Positions 386 through 16,011 of a stretch of 16,011 bases of DNA are shown here, one piece after another. Positions within the stretch are counted from its first letter, which is position 1; each line of letters begins with the position of its first letter. Source of the stretch: a virus (lineage: Duplodnaviria > Heunggongvirae > Uroviricota > Caudoviricetes). The position numbers and the translations under genes are program-made. Below the pieces are notes generated by a model, which made no database searches, had not been told where the DNA came from, and worked only from the letters and a program-made list of their open reading frames with translations. The stretch spans positions 1 through 16,011 of IMG/VR virus record IMGVR_UViG_3300001765_000035; one strand, 5' to 3'.

Positions 386-1264
386 ATGGCAACAGTATAT
401 ACACAAGAAATAGTAGACAGTATAGCACCAGATGTAGTAGATATATTTAAGAGTTTGATGGAAGCTTCTACAGGAGTAGATAGTGTATATTTAAAAGCTA
501 AAGAAACACTTATTCAGATACTTAATGATGCTAATATTACAGGTGATCAGAAAGGTGAAATAGTAGCTCAAACTATATCTAATATGGTTAATGGTATTAC
601 CGCACAGTCTATGGACTCAGCGATGAAGATAGCTGTAGAAGACAGATTGGCTCCTTATACCTTAACTAAGATGAGAGAAGAAACTAAAGCTATTACTGCC
701 TCAGTATCTAAAATGGAATCTGATATTAAAAATACAGATGCAGAAATACTACTTAAAAGATTCCAAGGATGGAAGATACAAGGTGAAGTTAAAAGAGACT
801 TTGGTATTGATGCTCATGATCTTGCCGAAACTACTGTAATAGTACCATCCATAGAATACCATAATGAAGGTATTAAGTATGAAACTATAAGACAAGCTCA
901 AGCTAACACTTATGGAGCATACGCAGGGTCATTTAGAACTCATGGCTATGTAGATGTTACTACTGATGTGGATGGGATGTTAGGTGTATCAACTACAGGT
1001 AGTACTGCTATAGGTAAAGAAGGGCTTACATACTGGCAGACACGTGTAGCTGAAAGACAAGAACAAGGTTTTGATGATAACATGAGACAACACGTAGTTA
1101 ATAGTTCAGCAACAATGATCAGTATGTTACTTAGTACAGAAGCAAGTGGTATAGATTATACATCATACCTAAGTAAGTGGACACTAGCAGCTAACTACTT
1201 AAATTCTAGTGATGGATCTGTACAAAACACTAAAGGTGGTGGAACAGACGGAATTACACTATAA
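386..1264 (+). CDS. virion structural protein, N4 gp54-like (292 aa)
   Basis: SD AAGGA at 375-379; clean ORF. N-terminal IFKSLMEA...NITGDQKGEIV and C-terminal YWQTRVAERQEQGFDDNMR resemble motifs I recall from N4-like gp54-family proteins; position four genes upstream of the vRNAP block fits. Confidence 0.6.
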   Translation: MATVYTQEIVDSIAPDVVDIFKSLMEASTGVDSVYLKAKETLIQILNDANITGDQKGEIVAQTISNMVNGITAQSMDSAMKIAVEDRLAPYTLTKMREETKAITASVSKMESDIKNTDAEILLKRFQGWKIQGEVKRDFGIDAHDLAETTVIVPSIEYHNEGIKYETIRQAQANTYGAYAGSFRTHGYVDVTTDVDGMLGVSTTGSTAIGKEGLTYWQTRVAERQEQGFDDNMRQHVVNSSATMISMLLSTEASGIDYTSYLSKWTLAANYLNSSDGSVQNTKGGGTDGITL

Positions 1265-1283
1265 CGAAAGTTGTAGTGTATTT
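1255..1283 (+). terminator. stem-loop over the ORF386 stop codon, weak intrinsic terminator or RNA stability hairpin
   Basis: TACACTATAAC-GAAA-GTTGTAGTGTA: 11-bp stem with one U-G wobble, GNRA tetraloop, followed by only TTT. Confidence 0.55.
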
Positions 1284-1302
1284 AAATACTAAGTAGGTTT
1301 TA

Positions 1303-3150
1303 ATGTATATAGTACATGATAGATATACCCCACAAATACAAGAGTTTACTCATGCTTTACGTATTAAAAACATAGTACTTCGCCATTGGCCTAAAAGGAC
1401 TTTAGGTAGTGGAACAATAGTTTTAGACAAACTGTTTATATATATTAAAGGTCAAGGCGTAATTGATAGTGTAGCTACTCGTAAGTTATTTAAACTTATG
1501 AATATGAATCTCGAAGATCTTAAAAAAGAAGATTGGGATGGTGTAGAAAACTACTATGTGTATTGGCAACGATACGAGATGAGTTATATATTAACACTAG
1601 AAGAAGTAAAATATTATATAGAAATGCATTCTCCTTTAGTAGGTACAGAATCTGAATGGCAAGTAGCTACTGCTATATATAAACCTATGCAACCTGTCGC
1701 TGCTAGTATTACAGATGCGGAGATAATAGCTATGACTAAATCAGTTGAAACTGAAGCTATATCTTTTACTACTGAATACCATGATCCTGCTACCGGTAAT
1801 AGTGTACCTGTTAATAGGTTATTAGGAGTAGCCTTACTAGATACTTCAGACCTTCTATTTGAAAAACAAATTACTGTTAAAAGTAAAAAAATAGGTGCTA
1901 GAGAAACAGCACAACAGTTTAGAAGTTTTAACTATAGTCAGCCTGGAAGTATACTATCTAGTCTTATATTAGAAGCTAATATAGAAATAAAGTACAGACG
2001 AAAAGCTGTAGTAAACTTAGTCGATACTCCTATAAGTACTTTAGTAAATACTATAAAATTACGTCTAGAAAATATAAATAACCCTACAGGTATGTATACT
2101 AGTTTATATTATAACACATTAGTATCAAGACAACAACAAGGTACAGTATCTTCTACAGAAAATAGTATAAATGCTTCATTAAAAAATATGTATGAAGATC
2201 TAGTACCTATCGTAGAGGATAATGTATATATAGACGCTAGTGGTGGTTTAAGCCAAAGAGGTACGTATGTAAAAGTATCCGGTATAGAAAATATGAAAGC
2301 TGTAGAGTTTGTAAAATTCTTTGGTAAAAGTCTTAAGACTGGCTATACAGAAGAAGAAGCTGAATGGTATGAAGAACTAATTGCTATTGTATTAGCTGTA
2401 GCATTAATAGCTTTTGCTATATTCTCAGGCGGTGCAGCTATTGCAGCAGGTATGAGTCAAGCTTCTGCTATATTTGCTTTCTCATCAGCATTTGCTTTAG
2501 TACTTTCGGTAGGTACACTTGCGTTAACTGGATTAGCTTATGTTGCAGGAGAGCAAGGATGGCATGGATTTGCTGCTTATATAGGAAAAGTTATAAACTT
2601 CCTAGGAGTAGTAAGTACTATTGTAGGTGTTATATCTATATATGGAGCATTAAAGGTAGCTTTAGCAAAACAAGTAGCTACAGAAGCTTTACAGAGTGCT
2701 GGGAAAGAAGTAACAAATGAAGCAATAATAGAATTAACATCTACTACTATAAAGGATGTAGCTATTTCTGAAGTAGGTTTAAAAACACTGTTTGAAACAG
2801 CTAAGACAATGATATTCGGTAGTTCAACATTATCCTTAATGGATATATTCAACAAAACAGTATCTGCTGTAAACTGGGTAGCTTCCTACTTTATGGAAAA
2901 AGATATGGCTGAAATACAAGGTGATTTAACAGCACAGCAAGAAAAGAATGATGAAATGAAACAACAATATGAATTGTACAAAGGTAGTGTAGATAAAGTA
3001 TACTATAGTACTTCTGATTTGTATGAAGGATACTATAATCCATTCTTTAATGATTTTGAATTGGGTACCGGAGAAGGTCCGGATAGGTACTTTAAAACAA
3101 CAGGTACATGGCGCTGTCAAAACAGTTTAGAATACATATACCCTAACTAA
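1303..3150 (+). CDS. internal virion/ejection protein with multi-helix hydrophobic segment, N4 gp53-like (615 aa)
   Basis: YTEEEAEWYEE followed by about 90 hydrophobic/small residues (aa 359-450, LIAIVLAVALIAFAIFSGGA...GVISIYGAL) and a C-terminal coiled-coil-like stretch; syntenic with N4 gp53. Confidence 0.6.
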   Translation: MYIVHDRYTPQIQEFTHALRIKNIVLRHWPKRTLGSGTIVLDKLFIYIKGQGVIDSVATRKLFKLMNMNLEDLKKEDWDGVENYYVYWQRYEMSYILTLEEVKYYIEMHSPLVGTESEWQVATAIYKPMQPVAASITDAEIIAMTKSVETEAISFTTEYHDPATGNSVPVNRLLGVALLDTSDLLFEKQITVKSKKIGARETAQQFRSFNYSQPGSILSSLILEANIEIKYRRKAVVNLVDTPISTLVNTIKLRLENINNPTGMYTSLYYNTLVSRQQQGTVSSTENSINASLKNMYEDLVPIVEDNVYIDASGGLSQRGTYVKVSGIENMKAVEFVKFFGKSLKTGYTEEEAEWYEELIAIVLAVALIAFAIFSGGAAIAAGMSQASAIFAFSSAFALVLSVGTLALTGLAYVAGEQGWHGFAAYIGKVINFLGVVSTIVGVISIYGALKVALAKQVATEALQSAGKEVTNEAIIELTSTTIKDVAISEVGLKTLFETAKTMIFGSSTLSLMDIFNKTVSAVNWVASYFMEKDMAEIQGDLTAQQEKNDEMKQQYELYKGSVDKVYYSTSDLYEGYYNPFFNDFELGTGEGPDRYFKTTGTWRCQNSLEYIYPN

Positions 3151-3175
3151 GTTCAACAAGAGTTAAACATATTTA

Positions 3176-3184
3176 TGGTATACT
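3176..3184 (+). promoter_or_regulatory. extended -10 element TGGTATACT upstream of ORF3224
   Basis: TGn + TATACT in the 73-nt intergenic gap, about 40 nt before the ATG; SD AAAGGA at 3212-3217. Confidence 0.45.
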
Positions 3185-3195
3185 AAAAGTAATAA

Positions 3196-3211
3196 ATGTA
3201 AAGTTTTACAT
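3196..3211. repeat. inverted repeat ATGTAAA-GT-TTTACAT between promoter and SD
   Basis: Perfect 7-bp arms with a 2-nt spacer directly abutting the SD. Confidence 0.45.
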
Positions 3212-3223
3212 AAAGGATAAGAT

Positions 3224-3622
3224 ATGGCAGCAGGTGAATTATACCAAACAAATCCGGCATACGCAAGTATAGGTAATAGTGCTGATACATCAAACTTAGG
3301 TATGAGGGGCGATACAACTAGTTGGATGGATAGTATAGGCGGATATAAAGGAGTACAAGGTGCACTAGGTATAGGACAGCTTGGACTTGGTTTTATGGGT
3401 TATCTTGATAATAAGAAAACTGCAGAAATGCAACGTAAATTACTAGGTCAGCAATACGATACAAACGGATTCTTACTTGATCAAGCTAAAGGTAGACAAG
3501 CAGATATAGCTAGAGACTTCGGTGCTGGTGGTACTGCTCCGATTCAAGCTCAAGGTCTAGCTGCTAATACAGCACAAGCTCCTAGAACAGGATCTCCATT
3601 CGCACCAAAAACTGTAGTATAA
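3224..3622 (+). CDS. small Gly-rich internal virion protein, N4 gp52-like (132 aa)
   Basis: SD AAAGGA; Gly-rich hydrophobic segment GGYKGVQGALGIGQLGLGFMGY followed by a Q/K-rich helix; size and position match N4 gp52. Confidence 0.6.
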   Translation: MAAGELYQTNPAYASIGNSADTSNLGMRGDTTSWMDSIGGYKGVQGALGIGQLGLGFMGYLDNKKTAEMQRKLLGQQYDTNGFLLDQAKGRQADIARDFGAGGTAPIQAQGLAANTAQAPRTGSPFAPKTVV

Positions 3623-3632
3623 GGATTTATAT

Positions 3633-5753
3633 ATGCCTTTAAGACAAGACTTTGGATCATTCAGACAACCTGTAGATGCAACAAGCCCATTAATGAATGC
3701 GTTAACTAACGTACAGGCTATGTTTGCTAAACAAGAATCTGATGATGAAAACAAACGTAGGTATGATCAAGAACTACTAGTAAGAGAAGCTGCTCTTGCA
3801 GAAGATAAACGTAGATACGAAGAAGGTATGAAGTTTAAGAATTCGGCAGAAGCTAGAGCTATAGCCTCTGACGGTAGGGCAATCGACTTATATAACAGAA
3901 GTATAAAAGAACGTGACTCTACTGATTTATTTCTTCGAGAATTAAGTAAACCAAAACAAGAAATTGGTGGTTGGTTAAATCCTTCTAACACACTAGAGCA
4001 AAAAGCTATAGATGATATTGGAGTATTTTCTAGACATAACGATAAAGGCGAGCTTGTAACTTCCGATGTTAAAGGTACACCACTTAATCTACAGTCAGAG
4101 TATGTAGATTCGCAAGGTAAACCAATTACAAAAGAAGAAGCTGATACTCGTTTGGCTACTCAATTAAGCTTAGGAAGTCTTGCCGGTAATAGTCCATCTC
4201 AAGTTGAGTCAGAAGCAGATGTACTTCGTAGAGCTAATGAGACTGTACGAAATTCAGGTGGACTACCTACTCTTGGAATGCATCAAGAATTACTTCAAGC
4301 TGAAGCAGCTGAAAAAACAGTAGCTCAAAAAAGAATTGAAGAGATAGAAAAAACTAATGCAAAGTTACTTGCTGATAAAACTAAACTAGAATTAGACAGT
4401 AGCAAGACAGAGTATAAAGAAAGTAATAAAAGTTCTAAAGGTAGTGGTTCTGGTTATAAACTAGAAGACTGGACATTAGCTCAGGAAGCAGATGCTGAAA
4501 AAGTATCACCTTTAGGGTTAGGAGCAGATGCTTCTAAGATACGAGACGTATATGCACATGCACAAGAAAAAGGAATTCCTTTAGTAGTTGTACAAAATGC
4601 TGTAAGTAGAGCTACAAAAGCTGGTGCTAGTGGTACTTCTTTCGATAATACTGTTATATCAAAATATATACAAGAAGAAGAAAATGCTTTTAAAGGTAAA
4701 AAAGGCGGATACGCTGACGCTACTGGTTATAAAGCTAAAGTAGCAGCTACTGTTAACGCATATGATGCTGCTTATAATAAAGGTGCTGAAAAATTACGTC
4801 TATTAAATATGGATCCTGATGCAGTTAAAGCTGCACAAGCAGACGCATTATTTGCAGGTGTTATGGGTAAATACGCAAGTGCTAATAAACCTGCAGAAAC
4901 TAAAGCAGCTACAAACACAGCATCGTCAACTAATACTGCAAAAGTAGTTAAAGAACCTACAGTAGTACCTGTAGATAAACAAACAAAAGCAGCAGTTGCA
5001 AAAGTAGCACCTGTAGATATGGCTCAACACTCATTACCTGTTGGTTTCGGTACTGCAGATAGAGTTATCCCAAAACCGAAAGTAGTTCCTGGTTATGAAG
5101 TACTAGGAGATATTATAGGTTCTGGTGCTGTAAAGTTAGGTAACCATATAAAAGAAACAGTAAGTCAAGGTAAAGAACCAACAGCAGTAAAAGCAGGGCT
5201 TGGTTTGTTGGCTAATTCAGCAGCTGAATCTTTGAATATTGCAACAAGTCCTTATAATGTAATTAAAATGGGTACAGATGAATTCTTATTTGGAGAACAA
5301 AAAGGTTCTGTATTTACAGACTTTTCGAAAGATACTACAGCTAAAGCTGTAACACTATTAGAAAATGCTGGAGTTACAAATCCTACTACACAGCAAATAG
5401 CTATTATAGGTTCATCACTAGTAGGTCCTGGAGGAGCTTTAAAATCAGGAGTAAAATCAGCAAAAGAAGCAGCTACAGCTGTACGTAAAGTATTGACTGA
5501 TCCAGATTCTACTAAATTATTAAAAGGTTCACGTACGTTAAAAGCAGAGAAAGCAGCTGATGTTAAAGCAGCTGATCTTGGTGCAGCAACAGAATCGGCT
5601 AAGAATGATCTATACTTAATTGAAGAAGGATTCTCTAGCTTAAAAGGTGGGAATAGAAAACGTTATCAAGAGTTAGTAAAAGAAGCAACAGCAGCTGGAT
5701 ACACTAATGTAAAAGCTTATGTTAAAAAACAAATAGAATTGCTAGGTGAGTAA
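3633..5753 (+). CDS. large internal virion/ejection protein, N4 gp51-like (706 aa)
   Basis: SD AAGGA at 3621-3625 overlapping the upstream stop; Ala/Lys-rich helical protein with no Cys, an A/T/K/P-rich linker and a Gly-rich hydrophobic C-terminal patch; syntenic with gp51. Confidence 0.55.
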   Translation: MPLRQDFGSFRQPVDATSPLMNALTNVQAMFAKQESDDENKRRYDQELLVREAALAEDKRRYEEGMKFKNSAEARAIASDGRAIDLYNRSIKERDSTDLFLRELSKPKQEIGGWLNPSNTLEQKAIDDIGVFSRHNDKGELVTSDVKGTPLNLQSEYVDSQGKPITKEEADTRLATQLSLGSLAGNSPSQVESEADVLRRANETVRNSGGLPTLGMHQELLQAEAAEKTVAQKRIEEIEKTNAKLLADKTKLELDSSKTEYKESNKSSKGSGSGYKLEDWTLAQEADAEKVSPLGLGADASKIRDVYAHAQEKGIPLVVVQNAVSRATKAGASGTSFDNTVISKYIQEEENAFKGKKGGYADATGYKAKVAATVNAYDAAYNKGAEKLRLLNMDPDAVKAAQADALFAGVMGKYASANKPAETKAATNTASSTNTAKVVKEPTVVPVDKQTKAAVAKVAPVDMAQHSLPVGFGTADRVIPKPKVVPGYEVLGDIIGSGAVKLGNHIKETVSQGKEPTAVKAGLGLLANSAAESLNIATSPYNVIKMGTDEFLFGEQKGSVFTDFSKDTTAKAVTLLENAGVTNPTTQQIAIIGSSLVGPGGALKSGVKSAKEAATAVRKVLTDPDSTKLLKGSRTLKAEKAADVKAADLGAATESAKNDLYLIEEGFSSLKGGNRKRYQELVKEATAAGYTNVKAYVKKQIELLGE

Positions 5754-5754
5754 T

Positions 5755-6504
5755 ATGAATAACCCATTAAACATAAACCCTAAGAATACGCTAAAGCAGT
5801 TTCTACGTGATGATGTAAATGCTGTTGATCCTAAAGGATTAGCTACACAAGAGTATATGAAAAATCTTCAGCAGATGAATACAGAGTCATCCTTAACCTC
5901 CCCTCGTATGTTTCAAACATACTTTGGTGACGATAGTGCACCGGTACAGCAACAACGAGCTAAAGAAGCTGGTTTAGCTCATGCAGTAACGAATACTATA
6001 CCTAGTAACGGGGATAAATATAAAGAGATGTGGAGTCAAATGTACCAAACTACAAATGATCCAGTAAAAGAAGCTGCTTATTCACAACACGTAAAAGACT
6101 TATATGGTAAAGCTCCTAAAGAAGTTGAAATTAGAACAGCTATAGATAAGTCAATGCCAGCTTTTGCTGGTGAACTACAAAGTAGAGGCTTTGCTCCAAA
6201 TGAGATGAAAGAGTTATTGTACCAAACTGCATTACATGAATCAATGGGTGGTAGGTATAATAAACAAATTAATGGTCCAGCTAGAAGTGCTTGGCAAGTA
6301 GAGCCAAATACAGCGTATGATAATATACAAAATTATGGACACGCTATGGGTAAAGACTACGAAAAAGCTGTAGGTTATAGTAGAGAACAACTACAAGGTA
6401 TGAGCAAAGACCAAGTAGCTACATTACTTGAAACAGATCCCGCTTTCGCTGCATCACAAGCCGGACTATGGTACTTACGAAAAATGGATAAAAAGGGGGC
6501 TTAA
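5755..6504 (+). CDS. virion-associated lysozyme-like / lytic transglycosylase-like peptidoglycan hydrolase (about 249 aa)
   Basis: C-terminal domain ELLYQTALHESMGGRYNKQINGPARSAWQVEPNTAYD...AASQAGLWYLRK fits the lysozyme-fold pattern (catalytic Glu in HES at 6238-6240, G-x-x-Q-type strand as AWQVEP). Start moved from GTG 5746 to ATG 5755 because the SD AGGTG at 5744-5748 gives 6-nt spacing. Confidence 0.75.
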   Translation: MNNPLNINPKNTLKQFLRDDVNAVDPKGLATQEYMKNLQQMNTESSLTSPRMFQTYFGDDSAPVQQQRAKEAGLAHAVTNTIPSNGDKYKEMWSQMYQTTNDPVKEAAYSQHVKDLYGKAPKEVEIRTAIDKSMPAFAGELQSRGFAPNEMKELLYQTALHESMGGRYNKQINGPARSAWQVEPNTAYDNIQNYGHAMGKDYEKAVGYSREQLQGMSKDQVATLLETDPAFAASQAGLWYLRKMDKKGA

Positions 6505-6509
6505 GTACT

Positions 6510-6536
6510 TTCGTGTAAAGCCGGTCTTTATACGAA
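6510..6536 (+). terminator. stem-loop after the muralytic gene (weak terminator or processing hairpin)
   Basis: TTCGTGTAAAG-CCGGT-CTTTATACGAA: 11-bp stem with one G-U wobble, 5-nt loop, poor U-tract (TTAT). Confidence 0.45.
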
Positions 6537-6550
6537 TTATACTATAATAC
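6535..6550 (+). promoter_or_regulatory. promoter-like motif AATTATACTATAATAC upstream of the vRNAP gene
   Basis: Contains TATAAT (6543-6548); 15/16 identical to 304-319; SD AGGA at 6570-6573 precedes ATG 6582. Confidence 0.55.
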
Positions 6551-6581
6551 CTTAATAAAATATACCTATAGGAATTAATAT

Positions 6582-9500
6582 ATGGCAAGTAACCCTTATT
6601 TAGCAATCGCAGAAGCAGAACTTAACGATAGGCTAAATGGGCCTACTTTACTTCCAGAACCTACATCATTAACATCAGATAAAACTTCATTATTAGCAAA
6701 TAGAAAAGAAGAGAAAGTAAGTCGTCTTGGTAAGTTAGCTCAAGGAGCTGATCTACAGAATAATACCTATTCAGAAATAGGTAACGGACTTTTAGAAAGT
6801 AATGCCAACAAAGTGTGGAATGACTTAAGTGGTGCACAACTACAAGATGCTTTTAGTGATGCTGCTGATAAATCATTACGTCAAGATCCAGTTACAGGTA
6901 AAGTATACTCTAACGTTACAGGTGAAGAATTCACCGGAGATACTAGACGTATGTACATGTACGGAACAAAAGATGATCCTAATGTAGTTAAAGTAGGATT
7001 GGCTAGAGGAGATTTACCTAGCTCTGATTATAGGTATACTCCAGGACAAGCTGAAGCTGAAGGTTATAACACAGGTAAAAACGGTTATGGGTGGGATGCT
7101 GGTGAGAATGGTGTAGACTTAAAAAAGAACTATATGGATATGCTACTTCCATACGAAACTGCTACTGCTTTAGAAGGTATGGTACATGGTAATAAAACAG
7201 CACTAGAAAATAGACAATTTCCTGATGTTATGGCTCCTGAAGCATTAGCTCATGCAAGTGGTGTTAGTGAATACTATAATGATGTATCAGGTATACTTGG
7301 TGATACTAGAGGTATGACACCAGAAGAACTTACTCAAGCTGAGAATAATATACTTGCTGAGAAAGAACTACTTCCGGGAGCAGAAAGCTGGAGTTCAAAG
7401 CATGGACAAAGTGGTGGATCATCATTTGCTGACTTTAAACCAGATCCTGGTATGCAACTACCAGAAGCAATGGCTAGTGGATACGCTAACCTATCTTCAC
7501 GAGGAGCAGAACTTGTAGGTAGTTTAGTAGAACTAGCTGGAGAAGGTGTTGAAAAATTAGATGAATGGCAGAACGGTTATAACAAAGAGAACCCTGCTTC
7601 TGAAGAAAGTAATGTATCTGAAAGTGCATTAAAAAGTATTGGTAGTTTCTTAAAAGAAGAAGGCGCACAGATACAGACTGAACAACAAGACTGGAGAGAA
7701 AAAGGTAAGTATGATGAACTTGTAGGTTATGACACATCTTCTGTACAAGGTTTTGGTAAAGAGCTTGCAGACATGGTAGAAAAAGGTGATTACCTAGAAG
7801 CTGTAGGTCACATGTTCGATACACGTTCAATAACAGCATTTACTCAGTCTTTACCTGAAATGGTTGTAATGGCTAACCCATTCGGTCTAGGTGGAGTTGT
7901 ATCTGCTAACATAGCAAGTAACCTAAACGAACTAGAAGATAGTGCCGCTAAAGCAGGTATTGAATTATCAGATGAAGACAAGATGACATCTGCCGCACTA
8001 AGCACTGTAGGTACATTACTTGATAGATTTGGTGATAAGGTTACATTAGGATCCGCTAAAGGTTTGTCTACTATGATGAAAGGTATGCCTGAAGGTGTAC
8101 AGAATAAAGTAATAGGAATGTTCGGAGATCGTTTAACTGCAGTAGGTGTAGAGATTGCTTCAATAGCCCCTAAAGCGGCAGTAGAAGGTATTACAGAAAC
8201 AGCACAGACTGTATTAGAGAATAAAGCAACTGATGCTAGTAAGATGAATACTGAACTTACAGATAAAGAACAACGAGAAGCATTAGAAGCTGGTATGATT
8301 GGTATGGCTGCAGGTGGTGTTCCATCAGCTGCTACAGCTACAAAAGCTGCTATAAGTAACTTTACAGGAATGTCAGTAGAACAGCTTAAAGCTGAAATGG
8401 ATCGTAGAAAACAAACTAGAAATAGTACACGCCCTCAAGTAGGTACAGATATTCCTGCAGTAGCTCCTACAATGGATGATATTGCAAATATAGATGTAGA
8501 GATCGGTAATGATGGTATAGAAGGTACACTAGCAAGTGTTATGGAACTACAAAACAGAGTAGAGGATTTTGAAGATTCAGACGAATTATCCCCGGAAGTT
8601 AAAGCAGAGTACGCTAAACGTAAAGAGACATTAACATTAGCATTTGATGATATGTCAAACGATGAGCCTATTAAATTCGGTAGTACTGCTGATGCAGAAA
8701 GTTTCTTACTTACTGTACTAAAAGGTAAAACATTAGATGATGTTATTGAACCTAAATTAGAAAGCTTTGCAAAAATTAATAATATATCTTCTGAAAGTCT
8801 TACTAAGATTAAAAACTTAATTACTGTAGAACAAGAAGCTATCGGTGGTAAACGTGGAGCAGCAAGTTATTTAGCAGAAGCTAAAGTCTATATGAAAGAT
8901 CCTGAAAAGAATTCTAAAAAGATTCAAAAACTAGGTACCCGTATGGGTAGTTTCTACGATAAAGAAGTAGAGTATAAATCTGCAGTAGACAGCGTTATTG
9001 ATGAATTAGGGACAATACTTAAGACTAGAGAAGCAGGTGTAAAAGCTACACAGACAAGTATTAAGCGTATTCTTCCTATAAGTAACAATCGTAAAAAAGA
9101 ACATAAGATAGAATTTAAAGTAAATAGTCTTGAAGATATACAACAAAGTCTAGTTAACGCTAAAAAAATATCAGATGCTACAGGTAGAGTATTAACAAAC
9201 CTTGAAGACGGTATGGTTACAATCGGTAAAGAAACTACTAAAGCTAATGTTACTCTTGATGGATTTGATGGAGGTATCACAGTACCGGCTGCAACAAAAC
9301 CTAAGAATCAAAAGTTTAGAGATAATGATCAAAAACTGTATAGCGAACATGATGTGAGTAAAGTTATACTTGATACTAACCACGGATATAAGTGGAATGA
9401 GTATAAAAAAGTAGCAAGTAATAGTAAGCTTGTAAATACTAAAAAATATACTTCTGAAGATGTAGTAGTTGTAAACAGTTCTACTCCTGCAAAAAGCAGA

Positions 9501-12500
9501 AATATAAAAGGTTATGTACACAAGTTAGATAAAGCAACTATAAATGAAATAGTAAAAGCTAAAAAAGCTGGAGCAACTATAGTAATGGATAGTCAATTAG
9601 ATAACAAAGCAAAGGTAGCAATAAGAACTGCTATAACTATTGGACATACTTACTCAGCAGCAGATGCTGATAGTAAAGTGTATAAACCAAAAGAAAAAGC
9701 TATAGTAGAGAAAGCTGAAATAGATGCTGTAAAAGCTAAAGCAGCAGATAAAGCAAAAGCTAAATCAAAAGCTAATGGTAATTTAACACTAAGTATAGCA
9801 GCATTAATAAACGACATATCTGAAATAGATGATATAAGTACAAAAGCTAAAAAAGATACTTCCTTTAAAGAAGCAGCTACTAATGCTAAAGAGTATTATA
9901 GTGCAACAGATACAGAAGATGTACGTCAAGATAAGATGATAAAAGCTTCTACAAGTGCTATAAAAAAGCAAGTACAAGAACTTAGCAATGGCTATAGAAA
10001 AGCTATGGTAGACAATGATTCAGAACTAACAAGTATGGATATAGCCGATGTAAATAAGAAATGGCTTGTAGGCAAAGATTACTCAACAGTAGCAAAGAAG
10101 ATCGAAGAACTTGCTGTTAAAAAAGCTACAGACGATATTAGTAATGTTAATGCTAAAGTAAATATGCTTAGTAAATGGAAAGGTATTCTAGCTACAGCTA
10201 AAGATAAAGGCGGTATATCTGAAACAGATGCTATAAACGCATTGCTTACAAGTAAAGAATATGGACATATTACAGAAGCTAAAAAGGTTGTTGAGAACAT
10301 ACTTAAAAAGACAGGTATAAGTCTTAAAAGATATAGAGATAGTATTACAGATAAGAAAATAGGTATGACTTTAACACTAGACATAAATGAGATAGTTGAA
10401 CTTAAAGGTACGCCTACAGTGTTTAATACACTACCTGTAGATAATATGGGATCTAAGCTTTATGAAATATTCAATAATGCTAAAAAAGTATTTACAGCTC
10501 CTAACGTAGATGTAGTACAAGGTAATACTAAAAAAGATCCTTCTATTAAGACTAAAGAAGAACATAAAAAAGCCGGAGGTTTTGCTACCTTATTTGATTA
10601 TTCATTGTATAACGATCCTGCTAGAATGTTACTTATGGAAGAAGTTAACGATAAGACAGTACTTAATGATAACGTAGTTGCAGCAATGACAACTGCTGTA
10701 ATAGAACAGATAGCGATCAACGGTAGAATGATCTCAGATAAGTATAAGACTAAAGAAGACGTAGCTAGAATGCACGGAATAGAAGCTTACTCTATAGGTA
10801 ATAGAGAAGCTATTGATCTTGGTAAACATGGTATGTTAAAGAAAACTTTAGCTGATGATATGGGAAAAGCTATAGCTAAACACTTAGGTATTAAGCGTAA
10901 AGCAAATAGTGAAGTAGCAGATACAGAACAGTATGATAGATTAATAGCTGACTTAGGACAGTATGCTATACTACTTGGTGTAGATATGAAAGTATTCGAT
11001 ATGGATGAAATGTCTGTAGAAGAATATATGCATCTACTAGGTAGGGATGGTGCATTAGATGACAGTGCAGAGAATATAACTGGAACTACTGTAGGTTTTG
11101 TAAAGATTCCTGGTGATATCTATGATGATGTTATAGAAGAATACAAAGAATCATTTGAAGTATTGAAAGAACAATTACCTGATGTATCTACTATACGAAG
11201 AGAACCTTCAGATGTAGAGATAGGAAAAGGTACTAAAGAAGCACGTAAGAATACTATATCAAAAGATATATCTGGGTTTAAGCCTGCAGAAGAAGCTAAG
11301 ACAACATTAGAAAATCTAATGAATCAAGAGTATAGTGTAAACTTTGAATTAGTAAATCAGGTACTTGATAATCAGGATGATATCAAAGCTTTACTTGGTT
11401 GGATTGATATGGAAAATACGGATGCTCTAGAAGCATTATCATACGAAAGCAGAGAAATACAACCTGCAATCAATATGGATATAGAAAGATCTATAGAAGA
11501 ATTATCGTTACTAAAAGATAAGTATACTGATAATGAAGATGTAGGTTTATTCTTTGAATGGTTCTATACTAAGAACGGTCGTTATATGATGGATAGTAAT
11601 ACAATTAATCCTCAGACAGACAAACAGCTACATAGATTTATAGTAACACCTAAAGAGCATAAAGTAATGTATGGTGTTAGCTATAAAGAAGATGTACCTC
11701 AGTTTACAGTTACGGATTGGGTAGGACAGTCTAACACAGAACTAAAAGCTAAAGCTGATGTAGATCCTAAAGTAGTTCAACAAAATATGTATTACGCACT
11801 AGCACAAGGTTTAGGTATTGCTACAGATAAAAAAGAGAGTAGCAAATTCTATACACAAATGCAAAGATTGCTTGAAGGTACTGCGAATAGTAAATTAGAG
11901 ATAATCTATGAAGGTCCTAAAGATATACAGATTATAGAAGATGCTAAAATAGCTGACATACGTAATATATTTATGAAGAAAGGTGAATTACGTATTAACG
12001 TTAAAGATAACACTAATCCTGATAACTACATAAAGATTGAAGTAGAACATTTTACACATGCGCTACAAGCGTTTAGTATACTAGAGAAGATTGAAAATAA
12101 TGATACAAGCATAACTAGCTCAATTACAGCAGAGTTCGATGCGGTAACTTCAGGTTTCGCTATTAAGTTAGCACAGATGCCGGTTATAGGAAGAACGTTA
12201 AGATACGCACTTAAAGTAGGTATAATACCAAAAGTATTGATAAATGCTGATGATGCTAAAATGAGTGCGATGTTTAACGGGTTTACCGGTGGAGAATCAT
12301 GGGCTGACTTTAAGAAAGACCATAAAGAACTATTGGACTATTTAGATACAAAACCTAAAGTAAGTATGAATGATATCCTTGATGGTAAGATCAGAGATTC
12401 ATACCAGACAGCAGCAGAACAAATGGTAGATATAGATTCAAAACTAATAGAGAGTTCATTAAGCAGTAAAGAACTACAGCAAGCTTATCCTGATTTTGTA

Positions 12501-13922
12501 AACTATGCAGGTGTTTTAGCTGATATGCGTAAAGGACATGGTACTGAGGGTAAAAGTACATGGGATATACTTTATGGAATGTTGCCTAAGCATATAGCCG
12601 GAACTGCTGTTAAGTCTGATTTGCGTACATTGTTTAAGAATCCTTTCATGATCTTTAACTATAGTGCTTCTATTAAGAGTATTAGAATATCACTAGCGAA
12701 TAAACTAGCTACAGATATATTAGAGAAAGTTTTAGCTAATAAAGAGAAAACTGTTATTGAAGAATTATTTAAAAGTTTAAATATGAATATTGGTACAGGT
12801 AAACTACAGGTAGACGGTAAGAAGATTACTACTGTAGATGAATTACGTAAAGCAATTCAAGAAGTACCTGCAGATAGAATAATGTTAGGTAATAGTAAAA
12901 AACATAACCTACATACATTGCTGAGTACTCTTATAAATGCTTCATATGGTAGTAAGTTAGAAACAGTATTAACTAAAGAGTTTAAACCATTCTTAGATAT
13001 ACAAGCTGTAATTAACAACTCCTTTAAAGGTATGTTTGAAGTATTCAACATAGAGTATACAAAAGCTTTAGAGGACAAAAGAGCAGCTAACGATGGTATA
13101 TTAACAGTACAAGGTAAATTAGAAGTATTAATGGCTATGCAAGATGCATTCCCGGCAATTAAGGGACCATTCACTAAAGATGATATGAAAGCGTTAATAC
13201 CTATATATAAAACCAAATCAGGTACACCCGACAAAAGTGTAGGTGCTAAGACGTGGTTATCAAAAGGATGGGCTAAAAAGAACCTTGGTGAAAGTCAAGA
13301 GACATTAAACATCTGGCATAAGATTAAAGAGTTTGATGCAGCTATAAGTGCTGGTTCAGTTGTACCAATACACTTTATAGATGGTGCATTAATGGGTAGA
13401 ACATTAAATCATATGACTAGTGAATATAAAAGTGCTATGACAACATCAATCCATGATGCGGTTATGCCTCCATTGCTATTAGCAAATGAGGTTACAAGAC
13501 AGTACAATAAAGAATTTATAGATATGTCAGATGAGTATAGTGTTATAGATGAAATAGTAGCTGGATTAGAACGTGTATTAAAAAACAAGTCTAATGACGA
13601 AGCTTATAACGCAACTAATAGTTATAACGTAAATGGTAAGTGGGAAACACTTTCTGTATCAGACTTTGTAAAGCAAGCATTAAAAGATGCTAAAGCTCAA
13701 CAAAAAAAGATTATCAAAGGTAGAAAACAGTTTAAAGAAGTATTGGATGAAGACGGTGCCTACGTAATGCACATGGCAGGTATGTCTGAAGGTGTATTTG
13801 AACATCCAGGAAAGCCTAAGTTGAAAAGTAGTAAACTACAGGAACAGGTTGACAAGGGTAATATACCATTTGAAGCAGCAAAAGAATTTGAAGATAGCAT
13901 AGGGAAGTGTAATGGCTTGTAA
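6582..13922 (+). CDS. vRNAP: virion-encapsidated single-subunit DNA-dependent RNA polymerase, N4 gp50-like (N-terminal region plus polymerase domain, 2446 aa)
   Basis: T7/N4 RNAP motifs in order: TKNGRY-MMDSNTINPQTDK (DxxGR equivalent, R1667, nt 11568-11624), motif A EFDAVTSG (D1853, 12132-12155), motif B RTLFKNPFMIFNY (R2015, K2019, Y2027; 12624-12662), PIHFIDG (13365-13385), motif C IHDA (D2292, 13449-13460). The motif B to C distance of 273 aa is N4-like rather than T7-like. A ~1240-aa N-terminal extension precedes the polymerase. Confidence 0.93.
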   Translation: MASNPYLAIAEAELNDRLNGPTLLPEPTSLTSDKTSLLANRKEEKVSRLGKLAQGADLQNNTYSEIGNGLLESNANKVWNDLSGAQLQDAFSDAADKSLRQDPVTGKVYSNVTGEEFTGDTRRMYMYGTKDDPNVVKVGLARGDLPSSDYRYTPGQAEAEGYNTGKNGYGWDAGENGVDLKKNYMDMLLPYETATALEGMVHGNKTALENRQFPDVMAPEALAHASGVSEYYNDVSGILGDTRGMTPEELTQAENNILAEKELLPGAESWSSKHGQSGGSSFADFKPDPGMQLPEAMASGYANLSSRGAELVGSLVELAGEGVEKLDEWQNGYNKENPASEESNVSESALKSIGSFLKEEGAQIQTEQQDWREKGKYDELVGYDTSSVQGFGKELADMVEKGDYLEAVGHMFDTRSITAFTQSLPEMVVMANPFGLGGVVSANIASNLNELEDSAAKAGIELSDEDKMTSAALSTVGTLLDRFGDKVTLGSAKGLSTMMKGMPEGVQNKVIGMFGDRLTAVGVEIASIAPKAAVEGITETAQTVLENKATDASKMNTELTDKEQREALEAGMIGMAAGGVPSAATATKAAISNFTGMSVEQLKAEMDRRKQTRNSTRPQVGTDIPAVAPTMDDIANIDVEIGNDGIEGTLASVMELQNRVEDFEDSDELSPEVKAEYAKRKETLTLAFDDMSNDEPIKFGSTADAESFLLTVLKGKTLDDVIEPKLESFAKINNISSESLTKIKNLITVEQEAIGGKRGAASYLAEAKVYMKDPEKNSKKIQKLGTRMGSFYDKEVEYKSAVDSVIDELGTILKTREAGVKATQTSIKRILPISNNRKKEHKIEFKVNSLEDIQQSLVNAKKISDATGRVLTNLEDGMVTIGKETTKANVTLDGFDGGITVPAATKPKNQKFRDNDQKLYSEHDVSKVILDTNHGYKWNEYKKVASNSKLVNTKKYTSEDVVVVNSSTPAKSRNIKGYVHKLDKATINEIVKAKKAGATIVMDSQLDNKAKVAIRTAITIGHTYSAADADSKVYKPKEKAIVEKAEIDAVKAKAADKAKAKSKANGNLTLSIAALINDISEIDDISTKAKKDTSFKEAATNAKEYYSATDTEDVRQDKMIKASTSAIKKQVQELSNGYRKAMVDNDSELTSMDIADVNKKWLVGKDYSTVAKKIEELAVKKATDDISNVNAKVNMLSKWKGILATAKDKGGISETDAINALLTSKEYGHITEAKKVVENILKKTGISLKRYRDSITDKKIGMTLTLDINEIVELKGTPTVFNTLPVDNMGSKLYEIFNNAKKVFTAPNVDVVQGNTKKDPSIKTKEEHKKAGGFATLFDYSLYNDPARMLLMEEVNDKTVLNDNVVAAMTTAVIEQIAINGRMISDKYKTKEDVARMHGIEAYSIGNREAIDLGKHGMLKKTLADDMGKAIAKHLGIKRKANSEVADTEQYDRLIADLGQYAILLGVDMKVFDMDEMSVEEYMHLLGRDGALDDSAENITGTTVGFVKIPGDIYDDVIEEYKESFEVLKEQLPDVSTIRREPSDVEIGKGTKEARKNTISKDISGFKPAEEAKTTLENLMNQEYSVNFELVNQVLDNQDDIKALLGWIDMENTDALEALSYESREIQPAINMDIERSIEELSLLKDKYTDNEDVGLFFEWFYTKNGRYMMDSNTINPQTDKQLHRFIVTPKEHKVMYGVSYKEDVPQFTVTDWVGQSNTELKAKADVDPKVVQQNMYYALAQGLGIATDKKESSKFYTQMQRLLEGTANSKLEIIYEGPKDIQIIEDAKIADIRNIFMKKGELRINVKDNTNPDNYIKIEVEHFTHALQAFSILEKIENNDTSITSSITAEFDAVTSGFAIKLAQMPVIGRTLRYALKVGIIPKVLINADDAKMSAMFNGFTGGESWADFKKDHKELLDYLDTKPKVSMNDILDGKIRDSYQTAAEQMVDIDSKLIESSLSSKELQQAYPDFVNYAGVLADMRKGHGTEGKSTWDILYGMLPKHIAGTAVKSDLRTLFKNPFMIFNYSASIKSIRISLANKLATDILEKVLANKEKTVIEELFKSLNMNIGTGKLQVDGKKITTVDELRKAIQEVPADRIMLGNSKKHNLHTLLSTLINASYGSKLETVLTKEFKPFLDIQAVINNSFKGMFEVFNIEYTKALEDKRAANDGILTVQGKLEVLMAMQDAFPAIKGPFTKDDMKALIPIYKTKSGTPDKSVGAKTWLSKGWAKKNLGESQETLNIWHKIKEFDAAISAGSVVPIHFIDGALMGRTLNHMTSEYKSAMTTSIHDAVMPPLLLANEVTRQYNKEFIDMSDEYSVIDEIVAGLERVLKNKSNDEAYNATNSYNVNGKWETLSVSDFVKQALKDAKAQQKKIIKGRKQFKEVLDEDGAYVMHMAGMSEGVFEHPGKPKLKSSKLQEQVDKGNIPFEAAKEFEDSIGKCNGL

Positions 13923-16011
13923 TAAAAATGAAATACTAAAAAATGTACGTGATAAACATAACTTAACTATGGCTCAGATTAAACTACTAGAATCACTTAT
14001 GAAAGATGTAGTTGAAGACTTACGCTTAGGAGACGAAGCAGTAAAATCTTCTTCAAAAGATGATGTATATGAATACATTGTAGATTCTTATGAAAGTACT
14101 AAAAAAGATTTTATTGCAGAACTAAATAAAGAGAAGCCTAAGATACAGAATACTAAAAGTGAATCTACAGGATATGTAGTTCCTATTACTATAGAAAGAA
14201 TAGTAGGTCGTACAGCTTATTACACATATAAAGATGCTAATAAAGTATATCAGATACCGGCTAATTCTAAATTCATTAAATTAGATAATGTAGATTTAGA
14301 TACACGTATCAGAGAGTTTGCTCATGTAGCAGCTACTTATGGTAATACACAAGGTGCTAATAAAGCATGGAATAGCTTTGAAGATATCGAAAAGAACATA
14401 CACAAAGATCCTGAAAGAATGGTAGCTCTACTTGAAGAGTTACATGAAGCAGATGGTAAAAAAGAATCTGATGAACACATGAGTCAATTACGAACATTGT
14501 TTAGCACATTAAGATCTGATTTCTTCACAAAGATGGACGTATATGTAAGTAAAGATGTAGAAGGACGTGGTGGTATAGCGAGTAATACGAAGATAGGTGT
14601 ATACTTTTCAAATGTAGCTAAGCAAGCAAATAATGAAATGGGTGCTGCAGAAATATATGCACATGAAATCGTACACGCAATAACACAGTTTTCATTAGAA
14701 TCTGCCTCTATAAACAGAGAAGCTGCTAAGCTAGTTAAAGAACTTGATTACTTGATGGAATCTGTAATGGATCGTTTAACTTGGAAAGAGCTTATGCCTA
14801 AAGAAAGCATAGACGCAGTTCGTGAAGAACGTATAGCTAAAGAGTTGTATCAGTATATATTTACCAATAAAGAAGCAAGAGCAGAATTTATAGCCCATGC
14901 ATTGACAAACCCTATACTATCAGAAAAACTAAAGCTGATGAACCTAAAGCCTAAGCATGAAACTAAGAATATCTTAGAAGTACTTGTAGATTGGTTTACC
15001 TCTTTAGTAGATTTAATAATGGGTAACTATGAGTTTAACGATAGTAAGAAGACAGCTTATGAACAAGCTATGAAGTTGACAATGGCTTTAGCAGAAATCA
15101 ATAACAATAAGTTAAATGAGGTAAAGCAAAAGAACATTGTAAATACAATAACAGATGGTATTCAAAGCGGTAATGAAATGATAGGCGAAGCTATAGATAA
15201 AGTAATCAATAAATTCAAAGATGAAAATATTACGATTGCAAATCTACCAGCAAACGCAACACTGGCTGAACGTATACCATGGACAGCTAAAGCCTTATGG
15301 GTAATAATGAATAACAAAGAGTATAGAAACTACTTTGGTCATGTTATGTCTGCCTGGGGTGTAACCCCTGAAGGTATGTTAAGAGACTGGGGAAGAGCAT
15401 TCATGGAAACTAATGAAATGCAGAAAGCAGTAGAATGGTTAGGTACAACTTCAGATAAGATTGACCAAGCTAGAAACAGAGTAATACTTGAAGCTAAAAA
15501 ATTAGTATTAGATGGATTTGGGGAAACTAAACTATCAGAAACTGAAGAAGAAGCTTTAACAGCAATACTTGTAGATACAGATATACAAAGTATATTTTTT
15601 GATAAACAATATACCAATAAGAAAATACGTAGTATGTTAGAAGATGATGCTGAGCTAGAAAAACAGCTTAACTGGGCTAAGAGTAGATTAGAAGATATGG
15701 ATAGTGTACATAGACATTGGCATATTAACCAAGCACATGTACTAGGTGTATATATGGCTACAGGTGAGATAAGTACAGGAATGAACTTTAACTCATGGAA
15801 CATAGCTAGAGGATTACAGTCATCAGAAATTAAAAAAGTAAAAGGTAATCGTGGAAGATTACTAATGAAAGAAATAGATACAGTTGCCACACTAACAGCC
15901 TTGAAATACTCAAACAAAGAACAGAAGAAGCAAGTTGCAGAGTTAATGAGGGTAGAGTGGGGTAGACGTGGAGTAAAGAATTTAGTACATATCCATAAAG
16001 GATTTATAGAT
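13912..16011 (+). CDS. vRNAP C-terminal-domain-like protein with zincin metallopeptidase motif (partial, at least 700 aa, runs off window; absent from the supplied ORF track)
   Basis: ATG 13912 (MACNKNEILKNVRDKH...) with SD AGGGA at 13901-13905, 11-nt overlap with the vRNAP stop. I translated frame 1 to base 16011 with no stop. Contains YAHEIVHAIT (HExxH at 14662-14676) and EFIAHALTNP (14884-14913); downstream blocks such as NQAHVLGVYMATG and IDTVATLTALKY resemble what I recall of N4-like vRNAP C-terminal regions. Confidence 0.85.
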   Translation, partial: MACNKNEILKNVRDKHNLTMAQIKLLESLMKDVVEDLRLGDEAVKSSSKDDVYEYIVDSYESTKKDFIAELNKEKPKIQNTKSESTGYVVPITIERIVGRTAYYTYKDANKVYQIPANSKFIKLDNVDLDTRIREFAHVAATYGNTQGANKAWNSFEDIEKNIHKDPERMVALLEELHEADGKKESDEHMSQLRTLFSTLRSDFFTKMDVYVSKDVEGRGGIASNTKIGVYFSNVAKQANNEMGAAEIYAHEIVHAITQFSLESASINREAAKLVKELDYLMESVMDRLTWKELMPKESIDAVREERIAKELYQYIFTNKEARAEFIAHALTNPILSEKLKLMNLKPKHETKNILEVLVDWFTSLVDLIMGNYEFNDSKKTAYEQAMKLTMALAEINNNKLNEVKQKNIVNTITDGIQSGNEMIGEAIDKVINKFKDENITIANLPANATLAERIPWTAKALWVIMNNKEYRNYFGHVMSAWGVTPEGMLRDWGRAFMETNEMQKAVEWLGTTSDKIDQARNRVILEAKKLVLDGFGETKLSETEEEALTAILVDTDIQSIFFDKQYTNKKIRSMLEDDAELEKQLNWAKSRLEDMDSVHRHWHINQAHVLGVYMATGEISTGMNFNSWNIARGLQSSEIKKVKGNRGRLLMKEIDTVATLTALKYSNKEQKKQVAELMRVEWGRRGVKNLVHIHKGFID

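Follow-up and report, generated by a model that had tools for sequence, protein, structure and literature searches.

Is an uncultured tailed phage's virion RNA polymerase (vRNAP) really divided between two genes, and, if so, how might the two halves be held together? The question is raised by the first 16 kb (16,011 nucleotides, referred to below as the window) of record IMGVR_UViG_3300001765_000035, a linear sequence of 80,011 bp with a GC content of 34.5% and a completeness of about 78% according to CheckV, which probably originates from a microbial-mat metagenome. In this window an open reading frame (ORF) encoding the N-terminal and polymerase domains, ORF-A, is followed by a second, ORF-B, which encodes the C-terminal domain. 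The division is almost certainly a genuine two-gene split. Taking the split and the bond together, comparison of sequences suggests that a disulfide linking C2443 of ORF-A to C3 of ORF-B probably joins the two chains end to end again. The coordinates of all features are listed in Table 1.

The best known protein of this type is gp50 of coliphage N4 (3500 amino acids (aa); PDB 2PO4, 3C46, 9PNQ, 9PNR; PMC13434306, PMC4496689), which follows the same plan of N-terminal domain, T7-like polymerase domain and large C-terminal domain with an HExxH motif. The mini-vRNAP of N4 comprises residues 998-2103 (PMC4496689), and the model of the polymerase domain in the structure of N4 gp50 extends to residue 2101, with a disordered linker (2102-2123) next and the C-terminal domain from residue 2124 onwards (PMC13434306). 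N4-type vRNAPs are single polypeptides of about 3500 residues, whereas in the phage described here the enzyme is spread over ORFs of 2446 aa and 1334 aa; where the N4 chain runs through its 23-residue linker, a stop and a start are found here together with two cysteines.

ORF-A is a match to phrog_2206, the profile for virion RNA polymerases in PHROG, at positions 172-1991 of 3406 (E 2e-52). An AlphaFold (AF2) model of residues 1347-2446, for which 30 homologues served as input (predicted local distance difference test (pLDDT) 82.6, predicted template modelling score (pTM) 0.83), superposes on the N4 mini-vRNAP 3c46_A with Z 27.9 (826 aligned residues, root-mean-square deviation (rmsd) 4.6) and on T7 RNA polymerase with Z about 24. 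This fold and the invariant aspartates D1853 and D2292 mark ORF-A as carrying a T7-like single-subunit RNA polymerase domain. D1853 is a candidate for the aspartate of motif A, judging from its position in the fold and from the T7 motifs. D2292 is paired with N4 D1948 (D951 of the mini-vRNAP) in a hidden Markov model alignment; when the coordinates were re-read, the motif SIHDAVM was confirmed, as was the end of the polymerase ORF 154 aa past this residue, as given by the sequence-only reading. Residues 1-1066 of the model correspond to N4 1130-2070, and the 34 further residues lead to about N4 2104. Because ORF-A ends there and the N4 linker occupies residues 2102-2123, the cut lies at the boundary between polymerase domain and linker, which upholds the earlier proposal of a fission at the mini-vRNAP boundary.

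ORF-B matches phrog_2206 at positions 2269-3388 of 3406 (E 2e-134), and a profile built from its homologues matches N4 2473-3389 when searched against the solved N4 gp50 chains (9pnr_A, E 6e-67). An expected homology of the downstream ORF to the vRNAP C-terminal domain was thereby found, and by profile and fold ORF-B represents the large domain homologous to gp50 2124-3500. In a model of ORF-B residues 1-520 the first 150 residues or so are of low confidence and are followed by a zincin-like HExxH module; residues 157-409 superpose on N4 2373-2592 (Z 10.2, 176 aligned residues, rmsd 4.2; VIA-align). The HExxH motif of N4 itself lies in subdomain C1 (2124-2375; PMC13434306); no clear counterpart to this subdomain is seen here, the model of ORF-B 1-150 being of low confidence. 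The zincin-like module also shows a weaker fold match to lethal-factor and PPEP-type metallopeptidases (Z 6-6.7). With the N-terminal model of ORF-B as query, Foldseek matched nothing in the PDB at E ≤0.001, a Pfam search gave no significant match to either half, and single-sequence phmmer searches of each half against PDB chains yielded nothing useful, so that profiles were needed.

A second assembly of the locus, a Logan contig of about 10x depth, is identical over positions 13300-14500 and contains no indel that would restore a single frame; it probably stems from the same sample and is thus not independent. Of the sequencing runs listed for the locus none is from RNA, and the only one that covers it in full, available as contigs, is probably the source sample. 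Both ORFs are intact across 3780 codons. In dozens of lineages that share only 30-50% identity the same break recurs at the same border between domains. A search for related loci with a single protein gave nothing, and an alignment query gave nine loci; the metagenomic loci L005-L016 are broken as in the window. Searching with residues 1500-2446 of ORF-A gave 55 unfused cluster representatives with lengths of 1726-2766 aa, and full-length proteins of 3350-3600 aa were present only among its most distant matches. Judged from these comparisons, the two-gene layout is inherited and widespread.

Such a split has been known since 2013, and the phage described here is an uncultured additional case. 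Garcia-Heredia et al. reported that the Alteromonas phages vB_AmaP_AD45-P1 to P4 (Efbeekayvirus) encode their vRNAP in two genes, ORF127 and ORF126, and proposed a gene fission; the stop was re-sequenced, and polypeptides of 270 and 175 kDa were observed on a gel (PMC3821669). In a survey from 2023 the AD45 split was read as a miscall or read-through, and the pieces were concatenated (PMC10654107). The ORFs of AD45-P1, with 2481 and 1409 aa, are homologous to ORF-A (28% identity) and ORF-B (33% identity for ORF126, over 1285 residues). In both phages two adjacent genes are cut after the polymerase domain and one cysteine stands at each facing end, and within the phage collection no phages other than the AD45 ones matched the polymerase half at E ≤1e-10. 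The AD45 genes are separated by a 7-nucleotide (nt) gap, in contrast to an 11-nt overlap here, and the phage of the window, uncultured, of low GC content and probably from a microbial mat, has only about 30% identity to AD45. Besides AD45-P1, many diverged metagenomic relatives share the split, the recurrence for which the sequence-only reading had suggested to look. In the AD45 paper the cysteines are taken as an obstacle to injection, and their terminal, paired placement is left unremarked (PMC3821669); the terminal-cysteine pattern looks unpublished, since no account of it was found in a literature search.

Cysteines are rare in these proteins and are placed according to a rule. The 2446 aa of ORF-A include a single cysteine, as do the 1334 aa of ORF-B, each at the cut end, whereas the other ORFs of the phage contain 0.92% cysteine, a content at which one would expect about 35 among 3780 residues (binomial P 5e-13). 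N4 gp50 shares the near absence of cysteine and has none at all. In each of the 55 representatives of the polymerase half there is exactly one cysteine, which lies 0-3 residues before the C-terminus, and in each of the 16 representatives of the C-terminal half exactly one, in position 3 or 4. A profile search with the C-terminal domain through 1.84 billion representatives delivered 3034 relatives; among the best 150 of these 3034, which were examined, 135 have a length of 1150-2400 aa, and in 125 of the 135 the first seven residues include a cysteine, in nearly every case the sole cysteine of the chain. As a pattern in sequences, the cysteine rule shows that the thiols matter, and not which chemistry they serve.

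The rule extends to additional cuts. In the three-piece relatives L005, L011 and L018 the middle piece contains exactly two cysteines, one in position 3 and the other 1-4 residues from the end. In L005 and L011 the middle piece resembles N4 2225-2376 (C1 subdomain), with the HExxH module as a separate gene between polymerase and C-terminal domain. L018 is cut into N-terminal domain, polymerase and C-terminal domain, with the first break roughly at the border between N-terminal domain and polymerase. In five fused relatives (P0072, P0100, P0118, P0130 and P0184) both halves form one chain with zero cysteines. These fused forms occur at five separate places among the split ones in a tree of the C-terminal domain (local support 0.87-1.0 for four of them), and Fitch parsimony on this tree requires six changes; the break and the cysteine pair were therefore gained or lost together several times. 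The fused, cysteine-free vRNAPs inside the split clade imply either repeated re-fusion or repeated fission. Shigella phage pSb-1 (L019, NC_023589, positions 410-11198) served as a contrast: its vRNAP is annotated as three genes and was reported as such (PMC10654107), with breaks inside domains, zero cysteines and full-length close relatives, and its breaks are probably sequencing errors and not a natural split.

ORF-B begins with an ATG at position 13912, which produces the 11-nt overlap with ORF-A. Direct reading agreed with the sequence-only reading in that the second ORF has a Shine-Dalgarno-like site of its own and that a TAG closes its frame shortly upstream. Across the junctions the downstream gene lies in frame +1, 0 or -1 with respect to the upstream gene, with gaps of -11 to +26 nt, and in nine of the nine two-piece junctions read the ATG stands 2-3 codons ahead of the cysteine. 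Most relatives have a Shine-Dalgarno-like purine stretch (AAGGA) before the downstream ATG, between both cysteine codons, and this stretch is often encoded within the last codons of the upstream gene. The short tails that follow the upstream cysteine (C-K-G and similar) are approximately the Shine-Dalgarno sequence of the next gene in the form of codons (TGT AAA GGA and onwards), as seen at L011:7270-7290, L005:9985-10005 and L008:9985-10003, and the tail sequence recurs because it is largely this site read as codons. In the window the RNA at the junction is unstructured (minimum free energy -2.9 kcal/mol, z +1.58). Separate and probably coupled translation of ORF-A and ORF-B would fit the separate ATG with its Shine-Dalgarno-like site, the overlap and the varying frames.

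Two further ways of obtaining one product were considered and discarded. A conserved frameshift or stop read-through is out, as the relative frames vary and stops stand directly before each ATG. A split intein or trans-splicing is out as well, with 0-3 residues after the upstream cysteine, 2-4 before the downstream one and no intein match in Pfam.

The proposed coupling is as follows. After translation, C2443 and C3 would form an interchain disulfide, a joint nearly as thin as the peptide chain itself. The joined pair could then be packaged by means of the C-terminal domain and be threaded through the tail as one string. In the models both cysteines are located on tips with pLDDT <50, within four residues of the chain ends; for ORF-A this tail comprises residues 2438-2446. 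Encapsidation of the N4 enzyme needs the C-terminal domain (unpublished data in PMC4496689; credited to Kazmierczak 2002 in PMC3821669), and N4 has been proposed to thread the enzyme through its tail like beads on a string (PMC13434306). The earlier inference that the polymerase half is recruited in trans or re-joined was reasonable, and the terminal cysteines favour the latter. A more speculative step is that the reducing cytoplasm of the host would cut the bond and so release the polymerase from a domain, the C-terminal one, that acts as its inhibitor in N4 (PMC13434306). That the cysteine pairs are redox-cleavable substitutes for peptide bonds, which link the pieces into a thin string fit for packaging and for crossing tail and periplasm, and whose cleavage in the cytoplasm at the domain joints would release the polymerase from auto-inhibition, is a tentative idea which we hold to be somewhat doubtful.

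A complex prediction for ORF-A residues 2250-2446 with ORF-B residues 1-160 reached a score of 0.38 (best control 0.00), with contact agreement of at least 39% and partner pLDDT of at least 46 in the runs, and is weak support. In the benchmark of the procedure 51 of the 78 solved complexes attained the mark, as did 2 of 108 mismatched pairs; scores of 0.60 or below comprised only 5 of the 78 solved complexes and all four passing mismatches.

Several points weigh against a disulfide. The complex prediction passed only weakly, and the support for the bond is all comparative. Ten of the 135 short representatives of the C-terminal domain lack an N-terminal cysteine; these ten may be truncated calls. 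One cysteine per chain would also permit a metal bridge, or pairs of ORF-A with ORF-A or of ORF-B with ORF-B. Conditions in the bacterial cytoplasm are reducing, and the 80-kb record, about 78% complete, gave no match to the Erv1/ALR, glutaredoxin and thioredoxin families; the Erv1 search, which gave no signal in any control genome, carries little weight. With a reducing cytoplasm and no phage oxidase found, the bond would therefore form after lysis or inside the capsid. Whether the AD45 gel was run under reducing conditions is unstated (PMC3821669), and it neither supports nor excludes the bond.

The alternative that survives best, although we consider it unlikely, is that the chains stay separate and that the terminal cysteines serve as a metal (zinc-type) clasp, in pairs of like chains or as a link to another virion protein. 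The unspecified chemistry of the thiols would leave room for this, as would the reducing cytoplasm and the search of the 80-kb record in which no phage thiol oxidase was found. Such roles do not account for the occurrence of the cysteines in junction-facing pairs, with exactly two in middle pieces, one per end, nor for the loss of both on fusion, which is expected of a substitute for a peptide bond; a metal clasp is additionally opposed by the lack of further conserved cysteine or histidine ligands at the tips.

Less probable by a clear step is the view of the AD45 authors that the halves are independent and the polymerase half, untied to the C-terminal domain, is perhaps neither packaged nor injected. 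It was argued that the cysteines would block passage through tail and periplasm (PMC3821669), and the weak interface between polymerase and C-terminal domain in N4 (PMC13434306) is in line with independence. Yet the AD45 phage preparation contained both polypeptides (PMC3821669), N4-type infection requires an injected polymerase (PMC4496689), and independent halves leave unexplained the sole cysteine at facing ends in more than 100 lineages and its loss on fusion.

Recoding into one chain, either by a 10-nt hop from TGTAAT at 13908 to TGTAAT at 13918 or by a +1 shift between 13903 and 13919, is very improbable. The window does resemble the bypass of T4 gene 60 in that an identical short word flanks a short untranslated gap: the TGTAAT repeat is exact, skipping 10 nt joins the frames, and the cysteine codons would fit the required match of take-off and landing site. 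This likeness is not general. Six nucleotides are shared in only 2 of 14 junctions, the cysteine codon differs (TGT versus TGC) in 5 of the 14, and across all 14 only the cysteine codon family is shared; the relative frames vary between +1, 0 and -1. Unlike in gene 60, there is no take-off hairpin in the unstructured junction RNA, the take-off codon and the stop are not adjacent but two sense codons apart, and each downstream piece retains an ATG and mostly a Shine-Dalgarno-like site, which a hop would make superfluous. The two polypeptides of AD45 (PMC3821669) speak against a single product, and a hop gives no reason for a constant cysteine codon in proteins otherwise free of cysteine. An assembly or sequencing error, or gene decay in a defective phage, is hardly credible: although the contig is metagenomic with about 10x depth and the AD45 locus is tagged 'potential frameshift' in GenBank and was taken as a miscall (PMC10654107), the break recurs at one domain border across the diverged lineages, the AD45 break was re-sequenced (PMC3821669), both ORFs are intact over their whole length, and the probable true error case, pSb-1, looks different.

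Table 1. Coordinates of the vRNAP genes, their junction and their diagnostic residues (positions refer to the window unless a locus is named)
Feature	Position	Strand	Remarks
ORF-A	6582..13922	+	2446 aa; vRNAP N-terminal domain and T7-like polymerase domain; C-terminus ...SIGKCNGL-TAA
D1853 in AEFDAVTSG, candidate motif A aspartate	12138..12140	+	D invariant in 30 homologues; codon verified
D2292 in SIHDAVM, motif C aspartate	13455..13457	+	H-D-A invariant in 30 homologues
TAG closing the ORF-B frame	13900..13902	+	four codons 5' of the ORF-B ATG; direct reading
AGGGAAG, Shine-Dalgarno-like	13901..13907	+	5-11 nt 5' of the ORF-B start; resembles AGGA/AAGGA of other module genes, same type and spacing
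TGT, C2443, sole cysteine of ORF-A	13908..13910	+	three residues from the C-terminus
ORF-B, vRNAP C-terminal domain	13912..16011, past the window to 17916	+	1334 aa in the full record
TGT, C3, sole cysteine of ORF-B	13918..13920	+	invariant in 35 aligned homologues
TAA stop of ORF-A	13920..13922	+	within the 11-nt overlap; direct reading
HExxH (H251-E252-x-x-H255), zincin-like module of ORF-B	14662..14676	+	invariant or nearly so among homologues
Three-piece relatives	L005:8943-10001, L011:7286-9616, L018:1282-13435		cysteine pairs at all cuts

ORF-A and ORF-B belong to a group of seven genes that occupies positions 386-17916 of the plus strand. The seven proteins (about 5780 aa) contain three cysteines in total, the third being C605 of a 615-aa protein (about 3115-3117), ten residues before its C-terminus; the putative ejection proteins upstream in the module contain zero cysteines. 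The five upstream proteins matched only families of unknown function in the PHROGs. An antisense ORF of 243 aa (15339-16070, minus strand) lies wholly within ORF-B and is probably spurious. A megablast search of positions 12900-16011 against phages gave no match. The closest relatives, L005 (a 176-kb contig binned as a Sulfuricurvum metagenome-assembled genome) and L008 (a 205-kb contig), are far longer than an N4-like genome, which larger phages, concatemers or misassemblies may explain. Campylobacterota may be considered as hosts, which would fit the low GC content.

How N4-like phages pack a protein of about 3500 residues and pass it through a channel of about 35 Å is an open question (PMC13434306). 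A large natural clade that cuts its vRNAP exactly at the joints between domains and marks each cut with a pair of cysteines, a residue which these chains otherwise avoid, is a ready-made experiment on which of these joints must stay linked. The finding also corrects an annotation practice by which such loci are flagged as frameshifts (GenBank) or their pieces are concatenated (PMC10654107). Should the bond exist, a protein of a bacterial virus would have a disulfide in place of a peptide bond, a rare arrangement, possibly with a built-in release switch.

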